From assembly GCF_030013205.1 (NCBI RefSeq), contig NZ_CP122648.1: a stretch of DNA of 64,000 bases; one strand, written 5' to 3'. The DNA comes from Escherichia coli (GTDB lineage: Bacteria; Pseudomonadota; Gammaproteobacteria; Enterobacterales; Enterobacteriaceae). Positions 9,001-27,000 of this stretch are shown here, piece after piece; position 1 is the stretch's first letter, and the number at the start of each line of letters is the position of its first letter. Position numbers: made by a program.

Positions 9001-12000
9001 TTGTTAAGGCACTTAGCGGGTTTGTTGGTTTTGCGGTTGAACATCCCTGGCTTTTTGGGGCCGCAGTACTTGCTGGACCATCGAGAGTTGGTGCTGTGGC
9101 AGCCACAACGACCGGAGTTGCCGCCCGTGTTGTTGGTGGAAGTCTTCTTGGGGCTACAGCCGGAACAGTAGCTGGATTGGCTATTCCTACAAATGACACA
9201 CCTACCACCAGTGAGGAAATGAAAGGGCTGGAGGGGCGTTTCAACTTTGATTATTTTAACGAAGTGCAGGAGTGGCAAAAAAACAATCCGGGTAAGGTCT
9301 GGCCTGGAGGATTGCAGGGATTTTCAAATCAAGTAAACAGATCTGCATATTTATCCAGAGGGATCAGGAATAACAATCCCGGAAATCTTAATTTCGCAGG
9401 ACAAAAAGGGGCTACCCTGGAATCGGGGCCAAATGCCCGTTTTGCCAGCTTCCCGACGATGCTGGAAGGCATTGCCGCCTTAGATCGGCAGGTAATGCTA
9501 TACCTGAAACGCGGCAAAAATACGATTGATCAGATTATTGATATTTATGCCCCTTCATCTGATGGAAATAACACATCGTCCTATAAAAGCTATCTCTCTC
9601 AGTACACCGGATTAGGTGTTAAGGAGAAAATCGATGGTTCTAATTTTGAGGTCATGAAAAAGCTAATTCAGGGCATTATTAACCATGAAAATGGTGCTGC
9701 CGCTAAAGCTGTAAGTGTTGAAGATGTGATCCGGGCGCTGGCTATGAATCGTGGGATTGTCCCTGCAGCAGGAAACAATGATCAGAACGTTAAGTTGGAA
9801 ATTGTTCGGAACGCTGGTGCCGATTACTTCGCGCAACTAATTGGTGCTCAACGGTTCCTGGGATGATTTAAATACACGCGCTTTCCGGCGCATTAATACA
9901 GTCTGAGGGGAAGTGTCATGTTTATGAGCAAGGCAGAATATGCCAAACACAAAGGCGTAAGCCGCCAGACAGTTTACGACTGGATCGAGAAAGGCGAAGT
10001 GATCATGTCTGGCAAAAAAATTGATGTGGAAGCGACAGAGCAGCGGAACAGCCCACCAGCACAGGGAAAAGATACCGTTTCTGAAATGTGGCCAGAGAGA
10101 ACGCTGGAAATGACGTGGGGCGAGTTCTGGAAAGCAGTTAAGGCCAGAGACGGTAAAATCCCTGCACCAGTAACGGACAATGACATACAGCAGCGTGTAC
10201 AGGATGCAGCCGGGGAACTATGCTGTGAAGTGCAATTTCTTGATGATGGTGCTATCTGCCTTGAGGATTATGCTGGGCAATATTACTTTGAGCAGTATGA
10301 TTTTCGGGAAAATGCCAGGCTGGCAATTCGTATGCTGCGTTGTGAGCTCTGCTATGTTGCAGGTGATTGTCCCGATGAGCTGGATAACTGGAGTGAAGCC
10401 GGACTAAACGCCCTGGCTGAGTGGGAAAAATCAGGCCATCAATGACCTCAAAAAGTGTCAAGTTGAGCAGCTTGCCAGGTTGACACTTTACACTCTGAAC
10501 GCGAAAAAGTGTCAACCTCGCTGTAAGCCCCGCCATTACTGGCCTTTCGCCAGATTTACCACGTCAAAAAGCCGAAAAAATCGCGAAAAGTGTCAAGTTG
10601 CCATGCTTAGAAATGCTAAGGTTTGATAAGGTTTTTCGCGAAAAAGTGTCAAGTGTGTCAACCTGCGATGTTAAGATTTGTTAAGGTCTTAAGCCGGAAA
10701 GTGTCAACCAGCCCCCTAAGATTTCCTAAGGTGTAAACCATGACCATCACCGAAGCCGATTTGCTGGAGATGATCCGCAGCATTGCCGGAATCAAACAAC
10801 CAGCAAGCAAAATTAACAGGTGTTCAGCGCCTGTTTCCGTTGTGCTGCAGCAGGAACGCCACCAGCATGATGATGTGAGGCCGTATCAGTGGCGGAAACC
10901 GGACAGGCCGCGACGGTGAGCGGAACGTTCGGTAAGGCTACAGCCAAGCCAAACATTAAGCCTACGGGTAACCCTTCGAAGGGGCTTTAAAGGGGAGATG
11001 ATTATCCTTACCAGTTGATAAACAAGCAAACCTCAAATTTGAGGTTTGTATCTGCCTGACTTATTTTTGTGCTAAGTTGTTGATATATCCGACGACACAA
11101 ATTTGCGTTCTGTGGCTGGTGGTGGCGAGTTACGACCGATCATTTCCTTCCTGGCAGGTTACATCCTGCTGCTCAACTACTACGGTAGCCACTACGATTA
11201 ACTACGCGATGCCGATATGGGGATTCCCATATCGGTTTATCCGTGATCATCCACCAGCTTGATCACGGTTAACAGGGGATGTGTAATCCCCAAGCGAGTG
11301 ATAAATGTGTATAGAAATGTGTATAGAATTTATTTTAGAACTCGCGAATGCGCCTTTATTACTGGCCTTGTGGCTTGTTGTATTGTTCCCTTCGCCCGCT
11401 CCAGAATCTCCCCAGGTGGAGAAGACTAAAAAAGTCTTCTCTGTCAGCAACTTAAACAGTTACCTATTTAATTTGCTTAGGAGTTCTACCATTGTGATCC
11501 GCCCTTAGTAACTGTCACGTTAAGTTACTCGGTGAGATGACAGTATAACCTAACGTTGGCGGCAGTTGCACCTCTCACACCGCGATAGCACAACGTGAAG
11601 ATAAAGCCCATCCTGGCATTGTAATGTCATCGACAGACTGAACACACGCATTTAAGCCCGATGTGCGGCCTTGTGGCTGCGTAAACAGGTTTATGGTGAT
11701 ATTGGTCCTTGCAAACCATATGCAAGCTCTATCAGCGTTTCAGCCACGCTCCCAACGGGTACACGGTTATCCTGATAAGGTGTGATCTTTCTGACAATCT
11801 GATGAAGTCGCTACGCTCCCGCTTGTTGCTGTATCACCAACGGGGCTTTATGGTTTCTATTGTCTATAATAATCTCACAATTCCCCTGCATGAGGTTGAT
11901 ATGACTGTTAGCTACAAGATTACTTATGAGCATAGAGACGGTGATCAAATTAGAATGGAAGAGGTTTTATTCCATTCAGAGCATGAACCAACAAAAGATG

Positions 12001-24000: not shown

Positions 24001-27000
24001 TAATCATCACTGTGGGGCGGTTTAGCCCCCTTAAATAAGGATTACAAATTATGGCAATGGGTCCGTTAACCATTGGTCGCCCGACTGAGGCGAAAATCAA
24101 CAGCACAAGCAACGATAGCAACGGTAGAACAACCAAAGGGGGTAACGGCTTTGCGATCATTACCTCTAATCTCGGCAGTGGTGCAAATGCTGCTTACAAT
24201 GACTACCAGGCATTATCATTTGATAGCGTGGAATCGACGAAAGTTAGCAGAAATGCGGACGTTACAAGCTATGCCGTCGAATCAGGATCAGAAGTTAGTG
24301 ATCATGTTCAAATACGGAATAACAAGTTCACATTACAAGGGCGTATCTCTGAAACCGTATTGAAGCTCAATCCCGATATGATTAAGAATGCGGGAATTAA
24401 CGGCAATCGACGTATGCTTATGCTTGAATACCTAAATCAGTTGATGGACAGTCGCCAACCTTTCCTACTTGTCACTGAGTTAAAAAATTATGACAACGTT
24501 GTGTTAGTTGGCATGTCTTACGAAGAAGAAGCAAGCGAAAGCCTATTGTTTACTCTTGATTTTGAGCAAATCCGTCTTGTCTCTAAAGCAACTACAAGCG
24601 CAATTGCGGTAAAAACAGCACCAAATAAATCTGTAGGAGGTCAGGTTAAAATGCAGGTAAATACAACAGAACAGAAAAATCAAAAAAGCCCAGGGCAAGA
24701 CGTTGTAACGCCAGTATTTAAACAATAGCCTTAAACACCTATGAAACGCTCTATAACGAGATAATCATAAAAGAGGCATCAATCTATATTGAAGCCTCTT
24801 TATTACGTCTATGGCGTTGTTTTACGCCTTAAAATCAATATTTAATTCATATCTTACTAATTCTACATATTCAGCTAATTCTGGAATGCTTGCCCCTTGT
24901 GAGTAGGTGCGAAAGGCTTCTGTTTTGGCTTTTTGCTCAGTGTGGCCCGTAATACTGCCGATCCTGGTCTCGCTAACTCCGGCACGATCAAGACAAGTGA
25001 TAAACATCCCGCGCAAGCTGTGAAAGCATTGTCTATCTGTAGCGATTGGCAAGACGCTACGACGTAAACGTGAGAATGCTTGAGAATAGAACGGGCCTTT
25101 CTTGCCGTCGATTCTTTTTACTTTGTTCGAGTGAGGGAACAAATATTCACCATAATTATGATTTAAATATTCATCGACAATAATCGATAGTCTCGAATGT
25201 ATCGGAACGTGTCTGATCCCTGCTTTAGTCTTACTCTTGCTGATATAAAAACAGCGTATTCCTTCCACAGTTACAACCTCTGACTTTTTCAGGCTTGCCA
25301 GTTCGTCTAATCTGCATCCTGAAAACAAGCCCATTAAAATAATATTTCTGATCTCCGGCTCCGCTGCATCAAGTAGCTTTTGCATTTGTTCAGGTGTAAA
25401 CGGTTGATAACTCTCGATTGTGCGACGTGCTTCGAGGTTATGACCGTGAAAAGGGTTACTGTCTGGTATTCCGTCATAACGGCGTTTAGCAAATTCATAG
25501 AGCGATCCTAAGCATGTAAGCCAGTTTTGACGAGATTGATCGGCTGCTCCTCGTTGCTTCTGGTCATCTAAGAATACTGTTACAAGCCGTCTGCCTATTT
25601 TCTCAATATGAATATCATCTTTCTGAATGCTTTGTAAAAATAGCTCAACGGCCCTTGCTGATTTCTGTAGTGTTGAGTATGAACGACGCTCTCTGTAGCA
25701 TTCGGCGTATTCGTCACGTATTAAGCATAGGGAAGGCGATGCATAACCGCGTTTTACGGCTCTTTGCGTGTTTTTATTGGCCCTTGCCTCTGAATGTAAG
25801 AATTCAATAGCTTTTTGTAACCTCCTTTCGGGGTTATCAGGATTATGTTTCCGCTTTAGTTCCTCCCATTCTAATAACAGATGGTTTCTGAATCTTCTCG
25901 CCTCATTCAGATCTCGTGTAGATGTGCTTTTTCTCCACAACTTGTAAGGGTAAAGATGGCGTAAGTATTTAGGAACAAAAATCTGAAACATCCAGATCCC
26001 ATCTTTTCTCTTAAATAAGTATGCTTGGCTCTTGATCGACACGATAATGATCCTCTATTATCACGTAATCAGTTACCTATGATTGATCACAAAATCTTTA
26101 TTTTACAGCAGGTTATTATGGGTTTCCTCGATTCCCTTCGCCCGCTCCAATTTATCTTCACCTCATCAACCTGCCATTTTTGTTGTATCTGATTTTCTAT
26201 ATTATCTTAATTCAATCGCTTCAGACTTTTCGCAATCGCCGTAATACTTCCCCATTTTTTTGTAAATAAAAGCGTTTACGCAATGCAATCCATTTGTAAC
26301 AACCCAGGTAAAATACCTTATTTTCAAGTTGTTAAATAAGTGGTTATCTACGCTTTTAACAAACGATTGATGGAATCTTTTATGAAAGGGAAATCTACAT
26401 TAACTCTTCTGCTCGCTGGTATATTTTCATGCGGCACATGCCAGGCGACAGGGGCAGAAGTGACGAGTGAATCTGTATTTAACATTCTTAATTCCACGGG
26501 GGCAGCAACTGATAAAAGTTATTTATCGTTAAATCCAGATAAGTATCCTAATTATCGTCTTCTGATTCACTCAGCCAAATTAAAAAATGAAATAAAGAGC
26601 CACTATACCAAAGACGAAATTCAAGGATTGTTAACATTAACAGAAAATACACGAAAGTTAACGTTGACGGAGAAACCCTGGGGAACATTTATTCTTGCTT
26701 CTACTTTCGAAGATGACAAAACAGCGGCAGAAACCCACTATGATGCTGTCTGGCTGAGGGATAGTTTATGGGGCTATATGGCATTAGTATCAGATCAAGG
26801 AAATAGTGTAGCCGCAAAAAAGGTTCTGCTCACTCTGTGGGATTATATGTCTACGCCCGACCAGATTAAGCGGATGCAGGACGTCATTAGCAACCCAAAA
26901 CGACTGGATGGTATTCCTGGGCAAATGAATGCTGTGCATATCCGATTTGACAGCAACTCCCCCGTGATGGCAGATGTGCAGGAAGAAGGCAAGCCGCAGC

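Follow-up and report, generated by a model that had tools for sequence, protein, structure and literature searches.

What kind of element carries an integrase, a phage head and part of a phage tail, and no terminase or portal? The question is raised by an island in the chromosome of ETEC4079, a porcine enterotoxigenic Escherichia coli, of which we analysed a 64-kb stretch, here called the window (window coordinate = coordinate in record NZ_CP122643.1 minus 959998). The island takes up 14,727 bp of it, or ~13.4 kb without a secondary IS2 insertion. It is a further member of a published, predicted family, the 224 "putative satellites" that Barth, Dunham and Seed traced in E. coli in 2023 via the RepA_N domains of Odn-like phage nucleases (PMC10448857). 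The original prediction, made from the sequence of the window, offered two options, a satellite dependent on a helper and a heavily reduced prophage, and the first of these stands as an interpretation: we consider it probable that the island is an integrative satellite of the Stephanstirmvirinae. We infer this function, and the dependence on a helper, from structural genes that match one lytic group, from recent DNA exchange with that group and from a sequence resembling its genome terminus. Phapecoctavirus (phAPEC8) and Justusliebigvirus (phi92, inny) are the likely helpers. Barth et al. had come independently to this prediction (PMC10448857).

Head and tail genes of a recurrent island

The features that define the island and its virion-related genes are these, in window coordinates:

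11387-11404, + strand: left attachment (att) repeat TTCCCTTCGCCCGCTCCA, which doubles as the right end of a neighbouring primase island
18808-19017, + strand: 69-aa (amino acid) protein heading the structural operon; a gene of ~66-74 aa stands here in every relative; no PHROG match
19017-19391, + strand: head decoration (cement) protein, 124 aa, lambda gpD-like fold
19408-20436, + strand: major capsid protein, 342 aa, HK97 fold, Phage_cap_E family
20591-20788, + strand: 65-aa protein; a gene of ~62-67 aa lies between the capsid and tape-measure genes in every relative
20823-22646, + strand: tape-measure homologue, 607 aa (phrog_16051, 1.2e-26)
22631-23961, + strand: IS2 (IS3 family), inserted secondarily; its 5-bp target duplication, CTATT, lies at 22626-22630 and 23962-23966
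24051-24728, + strand: Dit-like tail/baseplate protein, 225 aa (PF21821, 1.7e-27)
24822-26042, - strand: tyrosine integrase, 406 aa (phrog_1, 1e-37), its start codon beside the right att repeat
26132-26149, + strand: right att repeat TTCCCTTCGCCCGCTCCA, identified as a match to the left one

A head gene pair of 124 and 342 aa had been proposed tentatively at 19017-20436, and the gpD-like and HK97 folds now give it substance. The capsid protein has a full-length match to Pfam Phage_cap_E (2.6e-17), also matches phrog_29, and is similar in sequence to phi92 gp124, which has a solved structure (1.2e-8). The capsid fold that the original assignment called for is found as well, since the AlphaFold model of the 342-aa protein (pLDDT 76.7) matched HK97-fold phage capsids in Foldseek, among them those of PhiTE (1.4e-18), ICP1 (coat protein 8g1r, 8e-16), Sf14, Chi and lambda. 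The decoration assignment depended on modelling the structure; searched as a profile against the PDB, the 124-aa family returned nothing, and direct BLASTP detected no similarity to the phAPEC8 decoration protein gp115. The same comparison of the 65-aa protein with phAPEC8 gp105 was also negative.

The original prediction saw no tail genes, and in this it was mistaken. Its coiled-coil/Gly-rich protein does exist, as 607 aa at 20823-22646, but is a tape-measure homologue and not a scaffold, colinear with phAPEC8 gp104 from residue 1 (~17 of the first 26 residues are identical, counted by eye). The second tail gene, at 24051-24728, encodes the Dit-like protein, which is 53% identical to gp103 of Phapecoctavirus (the phAPEC8 group). 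The length of 607 aa is an artefact, because IS2 truncates the gene: the last 11 codons are replaced by 4, and the intact gene, as found in ETEC1748, encodes 614 aa. ETEC4079 is alone in this among 12 porcine strains, the other 11 having an otherwise 100% identical island with no counterpart of the IS2. The copy in the window may therefore be impaired at the 3' end of its tape-measure gene.

The predicted absence of terminase and portal genes was upheld. Among the searched open reading frames (ORFs), no match above noise to terminase, portal, protease, sheath or tube families was found with PHROG or NCBIfam, and NCBIfam gave no match for the structural proteins. Terminase, prohead protease, alpA, head-tail adaptors and Pri-Rep had no PHROG match above noise among 16 island proteins and no NCBIfam match in the ten principal ones; the Pfam search covered four proteins. 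The helix-turn-helix end of the island's serine recombinase had a sub-threshold small-terminase match (0.0057, with no significant stretch). Terminase, portal, protease, tail tube or sheath and lysis genes were likewise missing from the window's island and from the relatives examined.

Those relatives are numerous. Homologues of the capsid protein, 342-345 aa long throughout and with identities from 98% down to 39%, come from E. coli, Klebsiella, Enterobacter, Citrobacter, Cronobacter, Dryocola and Serratia. In the neighbourhoods examined, from E. coli, Klebsiella, Enterobacter and Serratia, a single gene order fills ~11-13 kb: a small recombinase (serine or tyrosine), an ORF-free iteron region and small genes with a Rep-like protein are followed by genes of ~70 aa and ~122 aa, the capsid gene, a ~64-aa gene, a tape-measure gene of 607-633 aa, a variable slot and the integrase. 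The Dit-like gene is accessory: only E. coli-type copies have it in the variable slot, which in the Klebsiella, Enterobacter and Serratia relatives is taken up by small genes of other kinds. Integration sites include tRNA-Gly(CCC), tRNA-Thr, the inside of a lysR-type gene and others elsewhere. Of 5,426 complete E. coli genomes, 764 match DNA of one subtype, and a near-full copy is present in 239.

This is the build of the elements of Barth et al., which are att-flanked, ~13.5 kb long and placed beside tRNAs or in a lysR gene, and which encode a tyrosine integrase, decoration, capsid, tape-measure and baseplate proteins, a modular RepA_N-type initiator and, in some, a small serine recombinase; terminase, protease, alpA, head-tail adaptors and Pri-Rep are lacking, and the authors contrasted them with phage-inducible chromosomal islands that form capsids (cfPICIs) (PMC10448857). 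The window's island likewise has att repeats with an adjoining tyrosine integrase at a tRNA site, the decoration, capsid, tape-measure and baseplate genes, and an initiator that ends in an acidic domain without a nuclease domain. The N-domain of this initiator, called RepA_N by Barth et al. (PMC10448857), is homologous at the nucleotide level to an Odn-like protein of phage inny. The cognate phage proteins in that study are the Odn-like proteins of Inny, Muut and Mt1B1_P17 (PMC10448857), and the window's N-domain is of the Inny-cognate type. The window's copy differs in standing in tandem with another island and in carrying IS2, and its glyU att sequence was not found in the text of Table S6 of PMC10448857 as available to us. 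A search of the literature available to us returned no later paper on the family. To the main text of PMC10448857 we add the terminus-like element, the joint exchange of iterons and Rep domain, and an island homologue of the second phage domain; the finding that the Dit-like gene is accessory and that Klebsiella, Enterobacter and Serratia have relatives also goes beyond it.

Ties to the Stephanstirmvirinae

Among phages, the capsid, tape-measure and Dit-like proteins all find their best matches in the Stephanstirmvirinae, ~150-kb lytic myoviruses of the phAPEC8 and phi92/inny types. Identity is 25% for the capsid protein (range 22-26%), 24-40% for the tape measure, depending on the subtype, and 53-78% for the Dit-like protein, the highest value being that of the homologue in island L016 to its counterpart in inny. 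The decoration, capsid, tape-measure and Dit-like genes stand in the same order in Stephanstirmvirinae genomes as in the island.

A second tie, this one at the nucleotide level, lies in the replication region, and a third is a noncoding element near the left end:

13018-13116, - strand: terminus-like noncoding element, ~100 bp, homologous to the terminal-repeat boundary of Stephanstirmvirinae; beside the small recombinase
14168-14325, unstranded: iterons, predicted replication origin, with four palindromes GTAACG-N4-GTTAC and a half-site at ~14255
15358-15729, + strand: two early genes, encoding 60 aa (15358-15540) and 55 aa (15562-15729), both conserved in relatives
15783-16463, + strand: Rep-like initiator, 226 aa, with an N-terminal winged-helix DNA-binding domain and an acidic C-terminal domain

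Window positions 15550-16175 span the 55-aa gene together with codons 1-131 of the Rep-like gene and are 96% identical in nucleotide sequence to phage inny. With phage muut, the 55-aa gene by itself shares 97.5% identity, and its product is 100% identical to inny_185 and muut_153 (over 53 and 55 residues). Recent exchange of DNA between the rep region of the island and the Stephanstirmvirinae is evident here.

The Rep-like protein has weak PHROG matches to replication initiators (4e-6), and the iterons upstream number 8 strand-matches against 0.1 expected, with an AT-rich stretch (14326-14420) directly after them. In island L029, tandem TAGGAAATGAGTTCC repeats stand in place of the iteron block, between flanks that are 96-98% identical to the window; the N-domain of its Rep is replaced as well, and the C-terminal domain is retained. 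Iterons and the N-terminal DNA-binding domain of Rep are thus swapped together. Other island subtypes have other palindromes in the origin region, and the C-terminal domain is common to P0118, an abundant Rep allele.

The phage side of this exchange is a larger protein. Residues 1-140 of the island Rep are 87% identical to inny_184, in which the same N-domain is followed by a second winged helix and a C-terminal domain that matches phrog_681 "endonuclease" (3.9e-18), Pfam MUG113 (5e-4) and T5orf172 (0.13). Phage muut encodes a protein, muut_154, in which another N-domain heads the same body; this N-domain shares 66% identity with an Enterobacter island's Rep. A third variant exists. Barth et al. 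detected no satellite counterpart for the second RepA_N domain of the phage protein (PMC10448857). We find a counterpart in P0118, a Rep of 222 aa that is encoded in islands of the same family and listed in 3,152 index blocks of the protein collection: its N-domain and this second domain share 89% identity. On this reading, two types of origin would be recognised by the phage protein. Neither iteron type, that of the window or that of L029, is present in the 147-kb inny genome, which fits a phage protein aimed at the island and not at its own DNA. The architecture of inny_184 is like that of Odn of phage ICP1, in which a satellite Rep N-domain is joined to a T5orf172-type nuclease and which cuts the origin of the PLE satellite (PMC8263062).

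The terminus-like element is 80% identical over ~85 bp to many Phapecoctavirus records, where it lies 261-357 bp from the record ends; these records come from three laboratories. The genome of WPEC4 has an exact 328-bp repeat at both ends, the inner boundary of which falls within the element at CGCGTT/AAGCAC (boundary at the slash), and the island counterpart reads CTCGTT/AAGCGA. Another island, L002, carries the Justusliebigvirus version (95% identical to inny over 43 bp). An nhmmer profile of the element found 7 island loci, in constant orientation and always beside the small recombinase. For the related phage BME3, a 342-bp direct terminal repeat has been reported (PMC12210895). The element lies inside this annotated repeat, at a distance of ~68 nt between the annotated boundary and the conserved CGCGTT/AAGCAC, in a record that has Ns and internal repeats; BME3 therefore supports a position inside the terminal-repeat region, and not a cut site. 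Judged by these sequence matches, the element is a candidate packaging or cleavage site of the helper.

Two further observations concern the same phages. A Fur-box-like sequence, GATAATGAAAATCATTTGC, follows the 102-aa early gene of the island (17815-17833), and GATAAT-rich repeats like it flank the terminal-repeat-boundary element in WPEC4 (L025, 250-300) and in inny (~138560-138600). Beside the small tyrosine recombinase of some relatives lies a gene of 63-75 aa, 35-54% identical to inny_61 (L004 2768-2971, L008 2932-3123, L009 3955-4182, L016 1718-1930), which by this similarity is a further gene common to the island family and the lytic phages.

Proposed life cycle and alternatives

As a satellite of the Stephanstirmvirinae, the element would excise upon helper infection and replicate from the iteron origin by means of its own Rep-like protein. 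Its capsid and decoration proteins would form heads sized for a ~13.4-kb genome, with the portal, protease, terminase and most tail parts supplied by the helper, and its DNA would be cut and packaged through the ~100-bp copy of the helper terminal-repeat boundary. Some helpers would counter with the chimera of a satellite origin-binding domain and a T5orf172-type nuclease domain. The boldest form of the proposal is that the ~100-bp terminus-like element is a working copy of the helper's cleavage site, at which the terminase of a lytic helper packages satellite concatemers into the satellite's own small heads, with tails built around its own tape measure. We hold this to be less likely than not; if true, it would be the first satellite known to re-specify the head and tail core of a lytic helper, and the versions of the element in different islands would set which phage genus can help.

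Several points weigh against the satellite interpretation. Excision, replication, packaging and transfer are predicted, here as in the study of Barth et al. (PMC10448857). The capsid protein shares only 22-26% identity with that of the presumed helpers and might fail to assemble with their portal and protease. Among the island genes, no excisionase, helper-sensing regulator or small terminase was identified, and the proposed cycle does not account for the island's own tape-measure and Dit-like proteins. The case for a terminal repeat comes from identical ends in one genome and the consistent linearisation of a few records, and the annotated repeat boundary of BME3 does not coincide with the element. 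Pfam support for the nuclease domain of the phage protein is weak. In the window's copy, moreover, IS2 alters the C-terminus of the tape measure and splits its gene from the Dit-like gene.

One alternative is an interference (defence) island, not itself transduced and spread by other means, whose divergent capsid, tape-measure and Dit-like proteins poison the assembly of the helper. The structural proteins are indeed homologous to those of lytic phages and yet far from them, the phages carry a protein that looks like a counter-measure, and PLE likewise blocks its helper (PMC8263062). However, PADLOC gave no match for the cargo and early proteins, and the integrase, att sites, origin/Rep module and phage-terminus-like element are what a packaged replicon needs. 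Interference is also compatible with satellite transfer, so the two are not exclusive, and known satellites combine them. As the whole explanation, interference without transfer seems to us unlikely, though it survives best among the alternatives.

Slightly less probable still is a satellite of another, unsequenced helper, such as a temperate phage with a closer E-type capsid, the likeness to Stephanstirmvirinae then reflecting ancestry and occasional recombination. The low capsid identity (22-26%) would be accounted for in this way, as would the wide variation of the Dit-like and tape-measure identities among subtypes. Against it, 50,697 phage records contained no complete phage with a capsid protein more than 26% identical, and a search of 5.8 billion proteins found no closer capsid protein outside the island family. 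When IMG/VR was scanned with the capsid protein, the only hits were island copies in bacterial genomes. The 96% nucleotide identity with inny, the genus-matched versions of the terminus-like element and the Odn-like domains that match several island Rep alleles also point to the Stephanstirmvirinae.

The reduced prophage of the original prediction, in which the head and tail genes would be decaying relics, is very improbable. The morphogenesis set is incomplete and IS2 has entered the window's copy, as would be expected of decay. However, one compact gene set recurs in the same order in four genera and at different sites, its ORFs intact and constant in length. At saturated synonymous sites, the ratio of nonsynonymous to synonymous substitution rates (dN/dS) ranges over 0.10-0.22 in the decoration, capsid and tape-measure genes, with 0.10-0.19 for the capsid gene. 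Across genera, selection on the head and tail genes is purifying, and a layout that recurs under such selection at different sites is not that of a decayed prophage. Nor is the island a remnant of a known complete prophage, as the original prediction had allowed, given the absence of any capsid above 26% identity from complete phages in the 50,697 records; the nearest phages are strictly lytic, 150 kb in size and have no annotated integrase. Least probable of all is a helper-independent, capsid-like nanocompartment or a system resembling a gene-transfer agent, which the HK97-fold shell, the decoration protein and encapsulins far down the fold-search list might suggest, but for which the top matches in fold and in sequence (phage capsids of the lambda-E, PhiTE and phi92 type), the tail parts, the lack of cargo or packaging genes and the mobile-element features throughout leave almost no room.

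A Stephanstirmvirinae satellite of this kind can be set beside three known systems. One of them, PLE of Vibrio cholerae, would work in a similar way. PLE is a chromosomal island that exploits a lytic myovirus, ICP1; it has a Rep and an iteron origin with swappable DNA-binding domains, to which the phage replies with a chimeric nuclease (PMC8263062), and the model of our island's capsid protein matches the fold of the ICP1 coat protein (8g1r). The parallel examined is one of function. By published descriptions, PLE uses the coat protein of its helper with an external scaffold of its own, TcaP, and a large serine integrase. The island is unlike it in that its integrase is of the tyrosine type and that it supplies capsid, decoration and tape-measure proteins itself.

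The original prediction had noted that the layout fits neither P4 nor the phage-inducible chromosomal islands, and the gene content agrees. With cfPICIs, the island shares an HK97-fold capsid protein of its own, other virion parts being expected from the helper. It has capsid and decoration genes in place of the full cfPICI head module, and no match for prohead protease, portal, head-tail connectors, terminase/HNH, alpA or Pri-Rep; its presumed helper is lytic, and its tape-measure and Dit-like genes are outside the cfPICI signature gene list quoted in PMC10448857. P4-like satellites resemble it as tRNA-integrated elements (~11-14 kb) with a function of the head decoration type and a dependence on myoviruses. 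P4 is characterised by an alpha primase/helicase, Sid, Psu, Delta and a cos site. Unlike P4, the island has its own capsid protein, and the primase sits in the separate left tandem island; alpha primase had no match among the ten main proteins, and Sid, Psu, Delta and cos had no dedicated search.

If these islands are satellites of phAPEC8- and phi92-type phages, they would be the E. coli counterpart of the Vibrio PLE-ICP1 system, and an unusual one: having capsid, decoration and tape-measure genes of its own and no packaging enzyme, such a satellite tests how far a parasite can replace the virion parts of its helper. The presumed helpers are in development for therapy and biocontrol, so resident satellites could affect efficacy and gene transfer. 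For this window the outcome is mostly one of classification, that of one more copy of a published family, this one damaged by IS2 and placed with a second tandem island at glyU beside the ETT2 type III secretion island.

Ends, origin region and neighbourhood

The remaining features of the island are the following:

11405-11870, unstranded: noncoding left end, 90.6% identical to positions 1183-1655 of the Klebsiella pneumoniae island L004
11850-12461: variable cargo, an 85-aa ORF (11850-12107, + strand) and a YecR-family lipoprotein gene (12141-12461, - strand), as annotated in RefSeq
13114-13665, - strand: small serine recombinase of resolvase/invertase type, 183 aa (phrog_125 "DNA invertase", 5e-62)
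14400-14760, unstranded: self-complementary noncoding segment, 81-100% identical and colinear in 311 of 351 matching E. coli genomes
15207-15235, + strand: best sigma-70-like promoter of the island, TTGACA-17-AATAAT with TG (11 of 12 matches), pointing into the early operon
16473-17815, + strand: small proteins of 89, 127, 76 and 102 aa

The ends proposed in the original prediction, 11404 and 26127, coincide with the two copies of the 18-bp direct repeat TTCCCTTCGCCCGCTCCA (11387-11404 and 26132-26149). The repeat is the 3' end of tRNA-Gly(CCC), the complete gene for which is at record positions 957080-957153, left of the window; a tRNA scan of the 64 kb accordingly found none. G+C is mostly 34-45% within the island, with one 1-kb bin at 54%, and ~46-52% on its left side. 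The tyrosine integrase foreseen at one end is there (phrog_1, 1e-37). Its homologues have DUF6538 and Phage_integrase domains, and it is 81% identical to that of L004, which is likewise at tRNA-Gly(CCC). The left 470 bp of the two islands are 90.6% identical although their capsid proteins share just 56%, a level well above that of the coding genes; the noncoding left end thus follows the type of integrase, and probably represents the attP arm or a region governing recombination directionality. In the Enterobacter locus L009, a partial second copy of the left end lies past the integrase (15434-15615), which suggests another tandem element there. The cargo proteins have no PHROG or PADLOC match; YecR occurs also in the Enterobacter island L010.

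The Hin/Gin-type serine recombinase was correctly anticipated: its phrog_125 match (5e-62) extends over residues 1-182, through the catalytic domain and the helix-turn-helix at the C-terminus. In relatives, a small tyrosine recombinase takes its place. A role as resolvase is as likely as one as invertase, and Barth et al. suggested alternative integration (PMC10448857). The best candidate for an invertible segment, between the arms of a 30-nt inverted repeat (14454-14483 and 14702-14731), was rejected, being colinear over its full length in 311 genomes (coverage of at least 80%; 25 of them listed).

The AT-rich ORF-free region described originally extends over 1.7 kb (13666-15357). The self-complementary segment within it, which contains the 30-nt long-range inverted repeat and is unannotated in genomes, folds with a minimum free energy of -117 kcal/mol (z of -6.4 and -7.2 on the two strands, against shuffled controls); compensatory changes were seen in 3 of 92 pairs, with a covariation term of +0.47. 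It could be a set of origin hairpins or a noncoding RNA; an Rfam scan of 11000-26500 gave no match at E<=1. Promoter-like sites over the whole island do not exceed the number expected by chance. The run of small acidic proteins also holds, in that the products of 15358-17815 are partly acidic. From its sequence, read by eye, the 55-aa protein may have a ribbon-helix-helix fold, and the 76-aa and 102-aa proteins, also by eye, look helical and acidic. The 127-aa protein is kept in most subtypes compared. The four proteins of 16473-17815 had no informative family match, the 102-aa protein matching phrog_4122 of unknown function (1e-4), and PADLOC had no match for the early proteins. Between the early operon and the structural operon lies ~1 kb without ORFs. 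A late-promoter motif common to the phage structural genes and the island structural operon was looked for, and only a generic sigma-70-like TTGACA was seen.

To the right, the island is followed by a GH15 glycosidase gene and then by ETT2 (26340-42000), in which RefSeq marks the SpaN/EivJ needle-length determinant and YscQ/HrcQ as frameshifted or partial; ETT2 is thus probably degenerate in ETEC4079.

To the left, the island is the second of two elements in tandem at glyU. Its neighbour, an unrelated integrative island of ~14 kb at the same tRNA-Gly, occupies window positions 1-11404 and extends left to record position 957154. It encodes an integrase, an AntA/AntB antirepressor, Icd-like, ProQ/FinO, PerC and NUDIX proteins, and a P4-alpha-type primase (phrog_864, 3e-155). 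Also encoded are a DUF2213 protein with a weak match to head maturation proteases, a 679-aa protein with a transglycosylase/tape-measure-like domain at its C-terminus, and a 175-aa protein with a helix-turn-helix weakly like small-terminase and Cox-like families. The neighbour looks like another satellite-type element with virion-related genes. Such tandem occupation of tRNA sites recurs: another E. coli genome has an island of the family at tRNA-Thr, and a second integrase gene, of a different type, comes directly after it (L030, 19247-20461).

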